Assembly: GCA_964649165.1 (NCBI GenBank)
Contig: CAZYPC010000001.1
Span: 31,529 to 95,528, forward strand
Source: an uncultured Chryseobacterium sp.
GTDB taxonomy: Bacteria; Bacteroidota; Bacteroidia; Flavobacteriales_F; PHOS-HE28
DNA length: 64,000 bases
Reading direction: 5' to 3'
The position numbers were made by a program, and so were the translations under genes. Numbering within the stretch: the stretch's first letter is position 1; every line of letters begins with the position of its first letter. The notes under the pieces are model-generated. The model was not told the DNA's origin and ran no database searches. It saw nothing but the letters and a program-made list of their open reading frames with translations. Positions 22,459 through 54,611 of the stretch are shown in pieces.

Positions 22459-25400
22459 ATGCCCTCCGACTACAACCTGCTGATCGAGAAGCTGGATGCC
22501 TTCATCCGGAAGTACTACAAGGACCGCCTGATCCGCGGGGCCTTGTACAGCACAGGCCTGCTCGTGCTCTTCTTTCTGGGCGCATCGCTCAGCGAGTACT
22601 TCGGGCGCTTCGGCACCACGGCGCGCACGGTGTTGTTCTGGGGCTTCCTCTTCGTGGCCGCTGGCGTGTTGGCGCGCTTCATCGTTTTCCCCCTGGTGAA
22701 GCTGTTCCACCTCGGTAAAGTGATCTCGCATGACGAGGCCGCGAACATCGTGGGCCAGCACTTCCGCGAGGTGAAGGACAAGCTGCTGAACACGCTGCAA
22801 CTCCGCGAGCAGGCCAACAGCAACTTCGTGAATCGTGAACTCATCGAGGCCAGCATCGCGCAGCGCAGTCGCGAACTCTCTCCTGTCCCCTTCGCGGCGG
22901 CGATCGACTTCTCGAAGAACCGCAAGTACCTGCGCTACGCCCTGCCTCCCCTGGCGGTGCTCATCATCCTGCTCTTCGCCGCGCCCAGCCTGATCACCGA
23001 CCCGGCGAACCGCATCATCAAACACGGCAAGGAGTTCGCGCCCGACGCGCCGTTCCGCTTCATCGTGCTCGACAGCAACCTCACGGTTCCCGAGCAGGAG
23101 GACTTCGAGCTGCATGTGGCCATCACCGGTGAGTTCGTGCCGCAACTGGTGGAACTCGATATCAACGGGCAGCGCATACCGCTGGTGAAACAGGACGCCG
23201 CGCATTTCACCCATCGCTTCCGGAATGTGCAGCAGGCCATCGACTTCAAGCTCACGGCCGAGGGTTTCTACAGCGATGGCTACACGCTCAACGCCGTGAG
23301 CAACCCCATGCTCACCGACCTCGCGCTGCGGTTGGAGTACCCGCCCTACCTCGGCATGGCGAACACCAGCACGAACGGCAACGGCGACGTCACCGTGCCG
23401 GTGGGAACCCGCATCACCTGGACCGCCACCACGCGCAGCACGGACGAACTGCTGCTCGCTTTTGACGACACCACCTTCGCCCTGCAGCCACAAGGCGACA
23501 ATGCCTTCCTGTCGTCGCGCCGCTTCCTGCAGAGCCGCACCTACACGCTCGTGCCGCGCAAAGGAGACCGGGTCGCGCAGCACCCGCTGCAATACCGCGT
23601 GGATGTGGTGCCCGATCTCTACCCTACCATCCTCGTGGAGCAGAAGACCGACAGCACCTCTCCGAAGCGTCTCTACTTCAAGGGCGATGTCGCCGACGAC
23701 CATGGCTTCGCCAAACTGGTCTTCCACTACGGCTTCTCCGAGGGTGGCGACAGCGTGATGACCGATCGACGCGAGCGCACGCAAGAGCTCACCATCGACC
23801 GGAAGAACACGCGCCAGGAGTTCTTCCACTATTGGGACCTGAGCGACCTGCGCTTGCTGCCCGGCGACAAGCTCGAGTACTGGTTCGAGGTGTGGGACAA
23901 CGACGGCGTACACGGCAGCAAGAGCGCCCGCAGTGGCACGCAAGTTTTCGAAGCTCCCACGTTGAAGGAACTGGCCGACAAGCAGGACGCGCAGAACGAA
24001 GTGGTAAAGGACCAGTTGAAGGAGAGCATCAAGGATGCCCAGGAACTGCAGCGCGAACTGGACAAGATGCGTCGCGACATGCTGGACAAGAAGGAGCTGA
24101 ACTGGCAGGACAAACAGAAGCTCGAGAACGTGATGCAGAAGCAGAAGGAACTGCAGCAACGCATCGAGAAGACCACCGAGCAGTTCAAACAGAACAACCA
24201 GGAGCAGCAGAGCTTCAAGGAAATGGACGAGCGCCTGCTCCAGAAGCAACAGCAGGTGCAGGAGCTCTTCGAGAACGTGTTGAGCGAGGAGATGAAGAAG
24301 CTCTACGAGGAGGTGCAGAAGCTCATGGAGCAGATGAACAAGGAGGACCTCCAGCAGAAGATGGAGGATATGAAGATGAGCCAGGAGGACATCGAGAAGG
24401 AGCTCGACCGCGCCATGGAACAGTTCAAGCGCATGGAGGTGGAACAGAAGGCCGAGGACATCGCCGACCAGCTGGAGGACCTTGCCGAGAAACAGAAGGA
24501 ACTGTCCGAGGAAACGAAGAACGAGAAAGGCGACAACAGCGAACAGCAGAAGAAGCAGGAGGAGCTTAACAAGGAATTCGAGGACATCCGCAAGCAGCTG
24601 GACGAGCTGGAGCAGAAGAACAGCGAGTTGGAAACCCCGGTGGAACTGCCCAAGACCGATGAGCAGGAGCAGGAGATCCAGAAGGAGCAGGAGGGCAGCC
24701 AGCAGGACATGCAGCAGAAGGAGAACCAGAAGGCCGGCGAGAAACAGCAGAAGGCCGGGGAACAGATGGAGCAGATGGCCTTCCAGATGAAGAGCGCCAT
24801 GGGCGCCAATGAGCAGGAGCAACAGGAGGAGGACATGGACGCGCTGCGTCAGCTGTTGGAGAACATCGTGGAATTGAGCTTCGACCAGGAGGCCGCACTG
24901 AACGACCTGGGCCGCACCGCCGCGAAAGACCCCCACCTGGTGGACATCGGCCGGCAGCAGAAGAAGATGCGCGACGACGCCAAGGTGATCGAGGACTCGC
25001 TCTTCGCCCTCAGCAAGCGCGTTCCGCAGTTGCAGGCGGCCGTGAACCGCGAGATGAACGCCGTTAACGAGAACATGGACCAGGCCATGGAGCACCTGGC
25101 CATCAGTCGCGCCGATATGCGCGGCAAGCCCCAGGCGGCGGACAAACAGCAGCGCGCCATGACCGGACTCAACAACCTGGCGCTCCTGCTGGACGAGGCG
25201 CTGCAACAGATGCAGCAACAACAACAGCAGAGCGGCATGCCAGGCAGCGGCAAATGCAACAAGCCCGGCGGAAGCGGCAGCAGCAGCGGTGACAGCAAGA
25301 AGATGGCCAAGACCAAGGCCAACCAACAGGCCTTGAGCAAGCAGTTGGAAGAGATGAAGAAGGCCCTGGAGAAGAACGGCAAGAAGCCCGGGGGAAAGCC

Positions 25401-25896
25401 CGGCCAGAAGCCGGGAGAGAAGCCCGGGGCCGATGGTAAACCCGGCGGCATGGGGCTGCCCGGCATGAGCCAGCAGCTCGCCCAACTCGCTGCACAACAA
25501 GCCGCCATCCGCAAGGAGATGCAAAGGGCCGCCCAGGAATTGAACAAGGATGGCAGCGGCGCAGGGCAGCCCCTGCAAAAGCTGGCCGAGGAGATGGAGA
25601 AGAACGAGAAGGACATCGTGAACCGCAACATCACGCAGGAAACGCTGAAGCGCCAGCAGGACATCATGGTGCGCCTGCTGGAGGCCGAGAAGAGCGAGCG
25701 CGAGCGCGAACTCGACAACAAACGCGAGAGCAACGAGGGTCGCGAAACGCCCCACGCGGACCCCGCCCGCTTCTTCGAGTACCAGCGCAACAAGCAGCGC
25801 GAGGCCGAACTTTTACGAACAGTACCCCCGGGATTGAAGCCGTACTACAAGGCCAGGGTGGCGGAGTATTTCGATACTTTTGACCGACCCCGATAA
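22459..25896 (+). CDS. DUF4175-like large membrane-anchored coiled-coil protein
   Basis: N-terminus YNLLIEKLDAFIRKYYKDRLIRGALY followed by two TM helices, as I recall for DUF4175. The central region of about 600 aa is Q/E/K-rich coiled coil. Confidence 0.7.
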   Translation: MPSDYNLLIEKLDAFIRKYYKDRLIRGALYSTGLLVLFFLGASLSEYFGRFGTTARTVLFWGFLFVAAGVLARFIVFPLVKLFHLGKVISHDEAANIVGQHFREVKDKLLNTLQLREQANSNFVNRELIEASIAQRSRELSPVPFAAAIDFSKNRKYLRYALPPLAVLIILLFAAPSLITDPANRIIKHGKEFAPDAPFRFIVLDSNLTVPEQEDFELHVAITGEFVPQLVELDINGQRIPLVKQDAAHFTHRFRNVQQAIDFKLTAEGFYSDGYTLNAVSNPMLTDLALRLEYPPYLGMANTSTNGNGDVTVPVGTRITWTATTRSTDELLLAFDDTTFALQPQGDNAFLSSRRFLQSRTYTLVPRKGDRVAQHPLQYRVDVVPDLYPTILVEQKTDSTSPKRLYFKGDVADDHGFAKLVFHYGFSEGGDSVMTDRRERTQELTIDRKNTRQEFFHYWDLSDLRLLPGDKLEYWFEVWDNDGVHGSKSARSGTQVFEAPTLKELADKQDAQNEVVKDQLKESIKDAQELQRELDKMRRDMLDKKELNWQDKQKLENVMQKQKELQQRIEKTTEQFKQNNQEQQSFKEMDERLLQKQQQVQELFENVLSEEMKKLYEEVQKLMEQMNKEDLQQKMEDMKMSQEDIEKELDRAMEQFKRMEVEQKAEDIADQLEDLAEKQKELSEETKNEKGDNSEQQKKQEELNKEFEDIRKQLDELEQKNSELETPVELPKTDEQEQEIQKEQEGSQQDMQQKENQKAGEKQQKAGEQMEQMAFQMKSAMGANEQEQQEEDMDALRQLLENIVELSFDQEAALNDLGRTAAKDPHLVDIGRQQKKMRDDAKVIEDSLFALSKRVPQLQAAVNREMNAVNENMDQAMEHLAISRADMRGKPQAADKQQRAMTGLNNLALLLDEALQQMQQQQQQSGMPGSGKCNKPGGSGSSSGDSKKMAKTKANQQALSKQLEEMKKALEKNGKKPGGKPGQKPGEKPGADGKPGGMGLPGMSQQLAQLAAQQAAIRKEMQRAAQELNKDGSGAGQPLQKLAEEMEKNEKDIVNRNITQETLKRQQDIMVRLLEAEKSERERELDNKRESNEGRETPHADPARFFEYQRNKQREAELLRTVPPGLKPYYKARVAEYFDTFDRPR

Positions 25897-52345: not shown

Positions 52346-52729
52346 ATGGAAGGTACGCGGGGCGGAATACCCGTTCTGGTGGACGCACCGGGTGAATATT
52401 CCGCGGAGGTCACCAGCATCCACGGCTGCACCGCAACGACCGCACCTTTCACCGTGCTCGCGCTCGATGTCCCCGCCCCGAACACCGCGACTTGTCGCCT
52501 GGTGCCGAACCCGATGAGCGATGAGGTCATGCTGCTCAGCAACGAGGTGCTCACTTCCGCACACCTGGTGGAATGGTGCGATGCATCGGGCCGCGTGGTA
52601 CAACGCCAAGCCGGTGCGGGCAGCACCACCCTGGCCATGCAGGTGGGGCACCTGCTGCCGGGTGTGTACACGCTGCGGACCACAGCGCCAGATGGTGCAC
52701 GCAAGGCCCTGCGCGCTGTGGTGCGCTGA
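52346..52729 (+). pseudogene. CTD-only remnant of a T9SS cargo gene (no signal peptide, N-terminally truncated)
   Basis: This is the tail of the otherwise antisense ORF 50333..52729. It reads ...APGEYSAEVTSIHGCTATTAPFTVLALDV...CRLVPNPMSDEVMLLSNE...LLPGVYTLRTTAPDGARKALRAVVR, i.e. the half-module and CTD seen at the ends of intact cargo genes here. Confidence 0.5.
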
Positions 52730-52739
52730 ACACCGGCGC

Positions 52740-52928
52740 TTACGCGCAGGAGCAGACGAGCGCTCCGCACCCGCAGTCGCACCCCAGGCCGGGGCAGCCA
52801 GGCCCACAGATGCAGGGCAGCGCGCACGCGCAGCTTTGCGCGGTGTCTTCGCAGTTGCACGCCGTGGTGCGGGCGGGCGCGGTGATGTGGCCTATCGCGA
52901 TCACAAGGTTCTTCAGTGCGGTTCTCAT
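52740..52928 (-). CDS. Cys-rich micro-protein (62 aa; 12 Cys in the last 39 residues, mostly CxC)
   Basis: MRTALKNLVIAIGHITAPARTTACNCEDTAQSCACALPCICGPGCPGLGCDCGCGALVCSCA. GC3 is high. An alternative GTG at 52976 would add MTFASSNNNEHEHHDA. Confidence 0.45.
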   Translation of the reverse strand: MRTALKNLVIAIGHITAPARTTACNCEDTAQSCACALPCICGPGCPGLGCDCGCGALVCSCA

Positions 52929-53081
52929 GGCGTCGTGGTGTTCGTGTTCGTTGTTGTTCGACGACGCAAAAGTCACGGCGCGACAAGCCTGGGGCGTTAC
53001 ATCATCGTGGAACAGGTTTACATCGGCTTCCCTGTGGTCGCCAACAGGGGCAGGCCGCGACGCGTTCCGTCGTACCGCGTC

Positions 53082-54503
53082 TCAGTTGGTAACGACCCTC
53101 ACATGGGCCACTCGCGCCCCCACCCGCATGTGGAGCAAATACGTGCCTGCACGCAGGGCACCCAGGTCCAGCCGGGAGATGTTGCGTACCCTGATCACGG
53201 TACGTCCGTCCAGGTCGCACACCCACGCTTCCTCCACCATCCGGTCCAGCAGCAGCGGCCCCGCCGTGGGGTTGGGGAACGCGCGTACCACAAGCTCCGT
53301 GTGCTCGTCCATCGCGGTGGAAACGCCACAACTTACCGGCATGGGCACGTTGTGGTCCTCCATATCGCCGACGCCCAGGGCACCTTCCCAGTTGCGGCCC
53401 CAGGCCCAGAGGCTGCCGTCCGTGCGGATGCTCGCGCTGCTGTTGCTACCCAGGCTGATGGACGCGCTGCCCACGCCGTTGGGAAGGGAAAGCGGGCTGG
53501 CGAAGAAGAAGGTGTTGTTGCCCACACCCAGCTCACCGTCGTAGTTGAAGCCCCAGCCCAACAAGCTACCGTCCATCCGCTGCGCGATGGTGTGCGCATC
53601 GCCGCAGGCCACCGCCTGCCATACGGTGGCGATGCCGATCTGCTCGGGCACGGGGTGATAACTGCTGTTGTCGCCCACGCCCAACTGGCCATAGTCGTTG
53701 CGGCCCCAGCCCCACAGGGTGTTGGTCCCCTTCAGCGCGAAAGAGTAGTTCGTGCCGGTTGCGATGGCACGCCAGTCGGTGTCCGTGCCCACGTGCGTGG
53801 GCTCCACCTTCATCTGGTTGTCGTTGAAGAAGCCGAGCTGGTAGTAGTTGTTCCGGCCCCAGCTCCACAAGCTGCTGTCCATCTTCAGGGCCAGGCAATG
53901 GTCCGCATAGGTGGCCACGCGCCACCACGTGGTGTCCGTACCCACCTGCGTCGGCTCGAGCACATCCTCCTGGTCGCCCAGCCCAAGCTGCCCGGAGCCA
54001 TTGTACCCCCACGACCACAGCGTGCCATCCGCGCGCAGGGCCACGGTGTGCAACGAGCCGCATTGTACCGCTGTCCATGTAGCGCCGGTCCCTACCTGGG
54101 TGGGCAGGTGGCGATCGCTCACGGTGCCATCCCCCAGCTGCCCGTGGCTGTTGCTTCCCCAGGTCCACAGCGTCCCATCCGCCTTGATCGCGGCGCTGTG
54201 CAGGCCGCCCAGTTGGAGCGTATTGTCGAAAGTGCCGCTCACCGCCACCACCGCCCAATCGTTGGCGCTGCCCACCTGGTGCGGCTCGCTCACCGGCGTC
54301 GTGCCTCCACTGCCCAACTGCCCCGCGTCGTTCCAACCCCAGGTGTACAAGGTACCCCCGGTCTGGATGCCCGCGGAATGGCGGAAACCATAGGCCACCT
54401 GCTGCCAGCATTGGCCCATGACCAGGCTCTTCACCACGAATAACAAAACGAGCGCAGGCAGACGCAGGGATAGCGGCGCATAACGCGGAAGGATCGACAG
54501 CAT
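53082..54503 (-). CDS. RCC1-repeat (7-blade propeller) T9SS cargo protein
   Basis: Seven repeats of the type [15 protein letters not shown] / [15 protein letters not shown] / [15 protein letters not shown] and so on. [19 protein letters not shown]...[21 protein letters not shown]. Confidence 0.85.
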
Positions 54504-54611
54504 GGTCCAGAAAAGGTTGGGGCTGAAGGTACCGGGTGTTGGAGCCCTTCCGGCAGGTGGAGTCCTTCGCGCATGCGCCAACCACGCGAGCGCGGGCTGA
54601 GGCCGCCCACT

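Follow-up and report, generated by a model that had tools for sequence, protein, structure and literature searches.

Is a short open reading frame (ORF) crowded with Cys codons, lying in GC-rich DNA between two larger genes, a working gene at all, and if so, what would its product do and under whose control? The question is raised by a stretch of 64,000 nucleotides from an uncultured Chryseobacterium sp. (GenBank assembly GCA_964649165.1, contig CAZYPC010000001.1, positions 31,529 to 95,528), referred to here as the window. On its reverse strand an ORF at 52740..52976 carries 12 Cys in its last 39 residues, arranged in six CxC pairs, just as an earlier note on this DNA had read it. The ORF is very probably a genuine small gene of 62 codons for a metal-trapping, metallothionein-like peptide, because it stands behind a conserved control site that, in this bacterium, also precedes the genes for copper pumps, for copper chaperones and for three sister peptides. 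The features of the gene, numbered from the first letter of the window, are the following:

52740..52928, reverse strand: coding sequence of the Cys-rich peptide of 62 residues, from the ATG at 52928-52926 to the stop codon at 52742-52740, MRTALKNLVIAIGHITAPARTTACNCEDTAQSCACALPCICGPGCPGLGCDCGCGALVCSCA
52746..52859, reverse strand: Cys-rich core, residues 24-61 with all 12 Cys, assessed by family alignments, BLASTP and the ratio of non-synonymous to synonymous differences per site (pN/pS)
52863..52907, reverse strand: hydrophobic in-frame insert of 15 residues, residues 8-22, LVIAIGHITAPARTT, delimited by the family alignment

A small gene with the features of a metallothionein

The whole ORF would yield 78 residues from a GTG start and 62 from the internal ATG at 52928. 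The six CxC pairs of the peptide are CNC, CAC, CIC, CDC, CGC and CSC; its 12 Cys among 62 residues make up 31% of the core, and it contains a single His and no Phe, Tyr or Trp. In its low mass, high Cys content, CxC/CxxC spacing and absence of aromatic residues, the peptide resembles the metallothionein class. AlphaFold2 predicts neither an autonomous fold nor a helical bundle for it (predicted local distance difference test, pLDDT, 48), as would be expected for an apo-thionein. At codon positions 1, 2 and 3 the ORF has G+C fractions of 0.55, 0.68 and 0.85; the last of these (GC3), which the earlier note had likened to that of real genes, does match the 0.82-0.86 of four neighbouring genes; the two shifted frames have 0.56 and 0.69.

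The operator-promoter element

The DNA in front of the ATG holds an ordered set of elements, all on the reverse strand:

53016..53024, reverse strand: operator half-site 1, GATGTAAAC, which starts 21 bp (two helical turns) from the start of half-site 2
52996..53003, reverse strand: operator half-site 2, GATGTAAC, the other unit of the direct repeat, scored by position-weight matrix (PWM) scan
52967..52974, reverse strand: -7-like box, GACTTTTG, always 21 nucleotides after half-site 2
52929..52966, reverse strand: A/C-rich 5' leader of 38 nucleotides, CGTCGTCGAACAACAACGAACACGAACACCACGACGCC, translated in the earlier note as NNNEHEHHD

Read towards the gene, the order is GATGTAAAC-N12-GATGTAAC, 21 nucleotides, GACTTTTG, an A/C-rich leader TCGAACAACAA...CGACGCC, and the ATG. 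The geometry does not vary in any of the 14 promoters measured, with half-site starts 21 bp apart and 21 nucleotides from half-site 2 to the box. Members of the family described below share a start motif made of an A/C-rich leader followed by CGAC(G/A)CC-ATG, to which the window copy conforms except in leader length: the distance from box to ATG is 29-31 nucleotides in the other peptide genes and 38 in the window, where extra CGAACA units make the leader 8 nucleotides longer than in its sisters. The GACTTTTG box is conserved in nine of 12 peptide promoters and has a near variant in the other three. The -7 promoter element of Bacteroidota has the consensus TAnnTTTG, which GACTTTTG resembles. 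A sigma-70 promoter scan of the window locus found no match, as expected for Bacteroidota, and the one match of a terminator scan is simply the region of the -7 box.

This arrangement also settles where the peptide begins. The GTG at 52974-52976 was rejected as a start, as it overlaps the first base of the conserved box; the His/Asn-rich stretch NNNEHEHHD, which the earlier note had taken for metal-ligand-like protein sequence, falls with it, its codons being the conserved TCGAACAACAA leader that precedes the ATG in every member. The upstream extension is therefore 5' untranslated region and not protein. The start context at the window ATG, CGACGCCATGA, is common to family members and intact.

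Over 74 nucleotides (52951-53024) the upstream DNA is 82% identical to that of a gene in another species of the genus, directly 3' of an AraC-type regulator gene; that gene encodes a 44-residue CxC peptide, MKNPMKSAEEAQANCSNTSCTCTTCTCGITCPGEGCDCGCSCCK. The coding parts of this pair of loci are much more diverged than the DNA upstream of them. A 91-nucleotide upstream query has similarity matches, some of them partial, in 18 of 131 genomes of the genus; within its own genome it has three more on other contigs, two of which cover part of the element. The window promoter is closest to that of the copy on contig C30 (87% over 53 nucleotides), so that the regulator encoded there is the likeliest partner of the window gene. 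In a PWM scan of the whole genome the window site scores 46.2 bits, which places it among the four top sites and on a par with the sites before the CopA-type ATPase operon.

A family of CxC peptides under purifying selection

About 15 homologous CxC peptides of 40-46 residues are encoded 3' of the element, in 12 of the 131 species of an uncultured Flavobacteriales genus; its genomes are metagenome-assembled genomes (MAGs) named "Flavobacteriales bacterium", mostly from activated sludge and wastewater plants according to their records. The family consensus is MKTPxKSVExTxANCGNANCTCxICTCGPxCPxxxCxCGCxxK and the Cys pattern is C-x4-6-C-x-C-x2-3-C-x-C-x3-C-P-x3-C-x-C-x-C. The seven gap-free members of 43 residues form 21 pairs, and in each of these the ratio of non-synonymous to synonymous substitution rates (dN/dS) falls within 0.10-0.56; their alignment has 14 variable columns at first, 17 at second and 28 at third codon positions, and three of the eight invariant Cys codons are TGC in some members and TGT in others. 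The family thus codes for protein and is subject to purifying selection.

The homologue search suggested in the earlier note has thus produced a family within the genus whose nine-Cys pattern is conserved and is kept in the window copy. There, C26, C33, C35, C39, C41, C45, C52 and C54 correspond to invariant family positions and C50 to one that is nearly so; residues 26-54 fit the family pattern, and C24, C59 and C61 are extra. Identity to the family is 34-50%. The first seven residues, MRTALKN, align to MKTPMKS of the hydrophilic sister N-terminus (MKTPMKxVEQ...), and the copy exceeds the 40-46 residues of the family through its 15-residue insert and a C-terminal extension, GALVCSCA. Over 22 alignable core codons, comparison with the two nearest relatives gives 0.67-0.74 differences per synonymous and 0.17-0.20 per non-synonymous site, that is, a pN/pS of 0.22-0.29. 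Single pairwise BLASTP comparisons with sister peptides give E-values of 9e-7 and 3e-5, over CPGxGCDCGC; a profile that includes the window sequence gives 2e-8, but this is circular, and E-values are fragile for sequences so short and compositionally biased. Membership of the window copy is therefore based on promoter homology, identical geometry and Cys pattern taken together, and not on protein score alone; judged in this way, the window peptide appears to be a divergent member of the 40-46-residue CxC family.

The family is scarcely visible in databases. A profile search recovers only 6 family proteins among 1.84 billion representatives, and a second search only 5 among 5.8 billion clustered proteins, against which the window peptide as a single query finds no candidate; the two members with a source name are both labelled "hypothetical protein". 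Pfam yields no match for the window peptide (E up to 0.1) or for three sister peptides (E up to 1), be it to PF02069, to the eukaryotic metallothionein families or to any other model; NCBIfam has no match to these four, not even with a RiPP (ribosomally synthesised and post-translationally modified peptide) precursor model, and the family profile finds none among PDB chain sequences. No Bacteroidota metallothionein and no HMA-AraC copper regulator was found in the open-access literature searched. Two distant homologues of the peptide lie on metagenome contigs, one of them in DNA of 39% GC, and are encoded 100-170 nucleotides 3' of the gene for an HTH_18 regulator of 175-181 residues; at the 39% GC locus there is a comparable repeat, and the box is a perfect TATCTTTG.

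There are some signs of turnover or decay among the family members. One copy (L013/L102, G131:C118) is cut to 37 residues and is without several Cys, and in the copy on contig C146 of the genome under study (G000:C146:2388-2519) an Arg replaces one otherwise conserved Cys (SSERTCGC). A Cys-rich subfamily of 59 residues, MNTFLNTAASASCTCHIVDTTCTPANVCDAQALGGCRCACACGAHCPGSGCGCGCICGE, is found at G000:C68:17318-17590 and at L032 (G093), behind a weaker operator variant and with no adjoining regulator; the family hidden Markov model (HMM) does not detect it.

The HMA-AraC regulator

Three regulator copies are encoded in the genome, on contigs C30 and C146 (close copies of each other) and on C10, and none in the window; those on C30 and C146 lie directly upstream of the peptide genes of these contigs. 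In Pfam the regulator matches HTH_18 at 6e-17 and, weakly, HMA at 0.08. Its AlphaFold2 model (pLDDT 86) has a beta-alpha-beta-beta-alpha-beta N-terminal domain with a CxxC motif, followed by a double helix-turn-helix. Foldseek likens the C-terminal domain to MarA/AraC (template-modelling score, TM, 0.80) and the N-terminal domain to GolB, Atx1, HAH1 and TTHA1718 (TM 0.58-0.70), so that the regulator is predicted to combine a ferredoxin-like HMA fold, of the kind seen in copper chaperones, with an AraC/MarA DNA-binding domain. Residues N7, M8, V9, C10, R12 and C13 (N-M-V-C-x-R-C) are invariant in 14 regulator sequences from several Bacteroidota lineages. Of 301 Bacteroidota genomes sampled, 154 carry regulator homologues.

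The longer motif I-[KR]-N-M-V-C-x-R-C, regulator residues 5-13 (loci L087-L166), is present in Segatella, Saprospiraceae, Lewinellaceae, Pseudoflavitalea and Ohtaekwangia, and also in regulators of Dysgonomonas, Runella, Fluviicola, Chitinophagaceae and Flavobacteriales; cultured strains carrying the sensor therefore exist. No Cys-rich ORF stands beside the HMA-AraC regulator at 29 loci outside the genus, and at 80 further regulator loci an adjoining Cys-rich ORF of the peptide type was found at four loci only, all of the same genus. At L153:3258-3480, in a Chitinophagales MAG, an HMA-AraC regulator is followed by a Cys-rich protein of 74 residues with Cx3C-type motifs, which by these motifs looks like a four-helix-bundle copper-storage (DUF326-like) protein; the sequestering partner may be exchangeable. 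The third paralogue, G000:C10:9049-9800, 42-45% identical, is followed by a repeat of the same 21-bp spacing but other sequence (TGTAAC...TGTAAC) and by GAGCTTTG; 3' of this repeat come genes for HMA proteins and another large ORF that resembles an ATPase, and the locus could represent a sister regulon that answers to a different metal.

A regulon scattered over the genome

PWM scanning of the whole 5-Mb assembly yields six credible sites; two weak extra ones, on contigs C163 and C80, look spurious. The sites and what stands with them are, by contig:

C1 (window): operator, then the 62-residue peptide; no regulator nearby
C146: regulator, operator, 43-residue peptide, multicopper oxidase
C30: regulator, operator, 47-residue peptide, two large permease-like ORFs (MacB/FtsX-like by eye)
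C68: operator, 59-residue peptide; no regulator
C22: operator, HMA chaperone (CopZ-like), P1B ATPase of 809 residues (CopA-type), HMA-DUF3347 lipoprotein, multicopper oxidase
C166: operator, secreted protein of 84 residues, then an ORF of 779 residues, outer-membrane-receptor-like by appearance

Gene assignments on C22 and C146 come from Pfam. Four CxC peptide genes of this genome (window, C146, C30 and C68) thus stand behind the operator, two of them unlinked to any regulator. On reading its sequence, the ATPase of C22 shows the motifs CPC, YN-x4-P and M-xx-SS, which we take to be the signature of Cu(I)/Ag(I) transport. The operator also drives a family of secreted proteins of 84-93 residues that end in ...HPxFRIRLGRSFTITVPK (G000:C166:1442-1800, L014, L015, L017 and L021), for which neither Pfam nor NCBIfam has a match; on C166 the gene for the 84-residue protein is followed by the outer-membrane-receptor-like ORF already listed and by an ORF of 259 residues.

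Proposed mechanism

The favoured explanation, which is judged probable, is that the ORF is a genuine gene of the CxC family belonging to a copper regulon, and that its 62-residue product traps metal and is regulated in trans. When Cu(I), possibly also Ag(I), rises in the cytoplasm, an HMA-AraC regulator supplied from contig C30 or C146 would bind the metal at its N-M-V-C-x-R-C motif. The metal-loaded regulator would then occupy the GATGTAAAC-N12-GATGTAAC direct repeat, which ends 21 nucleotides upstream of the -7-like box, a place where AraC-type activators may contact RNA polymerase, and would thereby switch on transcription of the peptide gene in the window. The peptide, presumably cytoplasmic, would sequester the metal in metal-thiolate clusters through its 12 thiolates, like a metallothionein. 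In parallel, other members of the regulon would export copper, by the CopZ-like chaperone and the CopA-type ATPase, and oxidise it, by the multicopper oxidases. Activation appears more plausible than repression, given the position of the operator on the upstream side of the promoter box, and copper is the putative inducer.

Neighbouring genes and other features of the window

The peptide gene lies between two genes related to cargo proteins of the type IX secretion system (T9SS):

53082..54581, reverse strand: RCC1-repeat T9SS cargo gene, upstream of the peptide gene (Pfam RCC1/WD40_RLD)
52382..52729, forward strand: remnant of a T9SS C-terminal domain (CTD), convergent with the peptide gene (Pfam Por_Secre_tail, E 1.5e-6; TIGR04183)

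Both placements given in the earlier note are borne out: the peptide ORF follows the RCC1-repeat gene on the same strand at a distance of 153 nucleotides, and converges on the remnant, which ends at 52729, with 10 nucleotides from stop to stop. The RCC1 gene does not belong to the peptide unit, since the 153-nucleotide spacer holds a separate promoter for the peptide gene. Two short inverted repeats (GACGCG...CGCGTC and CCCTGT...ACAGGG) at 53025-53081, between the RCC1 stop codon and the operator, could terminate the upstream gene; the simple scan does not classify them as terminators, as they lack a T-run behind them. At 22459-25896 on the forward strand the window encodes a protein of 1,145 residues whose long middle part is rich in Glu, Lys and Gln and coiled-coil-like, and which also has short, degenerate repeats in tandem; it looks ordinary, and the strong AT skew of 0.49 at 24-26 kb is due to this gene.

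Weighing the alternatives

Several observations weigh against the explanation favoured here. The family is patchy in the genus and its profile finds members in none of 300 other Bacteroidota genomes, so that by this profile the peptide family is confined to the genus among the Bacteroidota sampled; no ortholog or syntenic locus of the window copy was found in the 130 other species. The copy itself is atypical in its insert, its longer leader, its extra CSC tail and its lack of an adjoining regulator, and is species-specific; neither a regulator remnant in the window nor a donor for the N-terminal insert in the genome was found. With the window sequence left out of the family HMM, it scores E 0.4 (13 bits, composition-corrected), at rank 5 of 101,811 frames. 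Most regulator loci elsewhere have no adjoining Cys-rich ORF, which means that the peptide is not an obligatory partner, and only adjacency and co-occurrence pair the regulator with the repeat. Copper specificity is deduced by association with genes that share the operator, and neither HMA/CxxC sites nor CxC peptides are restricted to copper, since Zn, Cd or Hg may be bound as well. Finally, taken alone, the Cys density of the ORF is within chance for a GC-rich genome: at least 12 Cys per 39 residues occur in 7 of the 101,811 stop-to-stop frames of this genome (61% GC). A chance ORF in a GC-rich spacer, or a RiPP precursor, is nevertheless very improbable. The remaining six Cys-dense frames are off-frame, R/S/P-rich products of GC-rich DNA that overlap genes in other frames; the window ORF, unlike them, is intergenic, and it is lifted above chance because it has a conserved operator-promoter in front of it and aligns to a conserved and selected peptide family. 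Cys-rich RiPP precursors do exist, but no radical-SAM, lanthipeptide or other maturase is encoded among the surrounding ORFs of the window, as the earlier note had remarked, nor at the sister loci, where the neighbours are regulators, oxidases and permeases, and Rfam has no match over 52600-53150. The preference of that note for a metallothionein-like peptide over a RiPP is accordingly upheld by the selected CxC family, by the operator shared with the CopZ/CopA-type ATPase/multicopper-oxidase operon and by the adjoining HMA-AraC regulators.

It is distinctly improbable that the ORF is a decaying paralogue, that is, a duplicated promoter-peptide cassette caught between two T9SS cargo genes, non-functional and unselected, and still open because it is short. 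The peculiarities just listed, from the missing syntenic ortholog to the weak HMM score, are what such a copy might display; other members do decay, as the 37-residue copy and the Cys lost on C146 testify, and the adjoining CTD remnant shows that the spot tolerates gene debris. Yet the nine family Cys are kept and three more gained, synonymous differences from the nearest members outnumber non-synonymous ones, per site, by a factor of 3-4, GC3 is that of live genes, and the operator retains its 46 bits and exact 21/21 spacing along with an intact start context. A second possibility concerns the destination of the peptide: the window copy might be an exported variant, with a Sec signal (n-region MRTALK, h-region LVIAIGHIT, possible cleavage at APA|R), serving as a periplasmic or extracellular copper trap or as a disulfide-rich peptide. 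This is unlikely, though not to be neglected. The insert is absent from all other members and is the sole hydrophobic stretch in the family; it comes after two basic residues and before a small-x-small motif, its best 9-residue Kyte-Doolittle mean (2.11, vs 2.14-3.27 in local signal peptides) lies about at the bottom of the local range, and the regulon includes exported HMA lipoproteins. On the other hand, the h-region is short and contains Gly-His; TTA|C at Cys24 is a poor lipobox, with Arg at -4 and no Leu at -3; the sister peptides are all without a signal, and beyond the cytoplasm free thiolates do not readily stay reduced. The insert could be a weak Sec signal with cleavage by signal peptidase I at APA|R, or could reflect drift, and the secreted Cys-knot peptide offered as an alternative in the earlier note finds in this marginal hydrophobicity no more than weak backing. 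Rather improbable, too, is the broader proposal that the window peptide is an exported derivative of an undescribed bacterial Cu(I)-thionein family, its insert having turned a cytoplasmic metal sponge into a periplasmic or extracellular one, and that a new class of copper sensor, the HMA-AraC fusion present in about half of the sampled Bacteroidota, switches on the whole family. Lastly, the mechanism could be as described and the physiological metal be Zn, Cd or Hg in place of Cu(I), which is quite improbable. CxxC-containing HMA domains and CxC peptides are not specific to copper, and the regulator type seems to have diversified in specificity, because the third paralogue has another repeat and its own P-type ATPase cluster. 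Against this, the operator found in the window also precedes the CopZ-like/P1B ATPase/multicopper-oxidase operon and a peptide gene that is itself followed by a multicopper oxidase, the ATPase bears what we take to be the Cu(I)/Ag(I) motifs, and the peptide is without a His-rich or Asp/Glu-rich ligand set of the Zn type.

Significance and comparison with known systems

The locus adds evidence for a peptide family that gene callers have missed almost completely and that is tied to an HMA-AraC sensor type without a description in the open-access literature searched; it also illustrates that one genome can hold four such peptides, two of them away from any regulator. The window copy, longer than the others and with a hydrophobic insert, is the odd one out and offers a natural test case for the retargeting of such peptides. 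If the favoured explanation holds, promoter, sensor and peptide would form a compact copper-inducible set of use in the genetics of Bacteroidota and, with wastewater organisms, in the biosensing or recovery of metals.

To our knowledge, bacterial metallothioneins are rare, and few families have been described (SmtA/BmtA, MymT and a few others). In peptide style, the closest counterparts are the fungal Cu(I)-thioneins (the Neurospora/Agaricus-type metallothionein and yeast Cup1 with Ace1), which are very short, use CxC/CxxC motifs, are devoid of aromatic residues and are activated in their transcription by a Cu(I)-binding factor; here the host is a bacterium, no Pfam metallothionein family matches and the fold of the presumed activator is different. 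Four-helix bundles of the Csp type (DUF326-like) also store Cu(I) through many Cys, but the window peptide has 62 residues, no predicted helical bundle, and CxC where they have Cx3C.

The bacterial metallothioneins SmtA/BmtA (PF02069) are under the control of SmtB/ArsR-type repressors (PMC8790569). Like the peptides described here, they are small Cys-rich metal buffers governed by a dedicated metal sensor; in comparison, they handle Zn/Cd, adopt a zinc-finger-like fold and use His ligands, PF02069 does not match the family, and the regulator class is another one.

In Mycobacterium tuberculosis, the copper-responsive RicR regulon includes the small Cu(I) metallothionein MymT, a multicopper oxidase and small ORFs (PMC3944814; for MymT, Gold et al. 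2008, as cited there). Pfam and NCBIfam link the window peptide to no catalogued metallothionein, and its resemblance to MymT is a functional and regulatory one. In both systems a single cytoplasmic copper sensor, here a presumed one, would act on scattered promoters through a shared operator, the regulon includes a multicopper oxidase, small proteins without an assigned function and a short thionein rich in Cys, and some members, such as the window copy, are unlinked to the regulator gene. RicR is a repressor of the CsoR family, whereas the presumed sensor of this genome is an HMA/AraC fusion whose operator, placed upstream of the promoter box, suggests activation; and four peptide genes are found here in place of one. 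By this analogy the RicR regulon appears to be the closest functional counterpart of the copper regulon proposed here, with a different class of sensor and a different regulatory logic.

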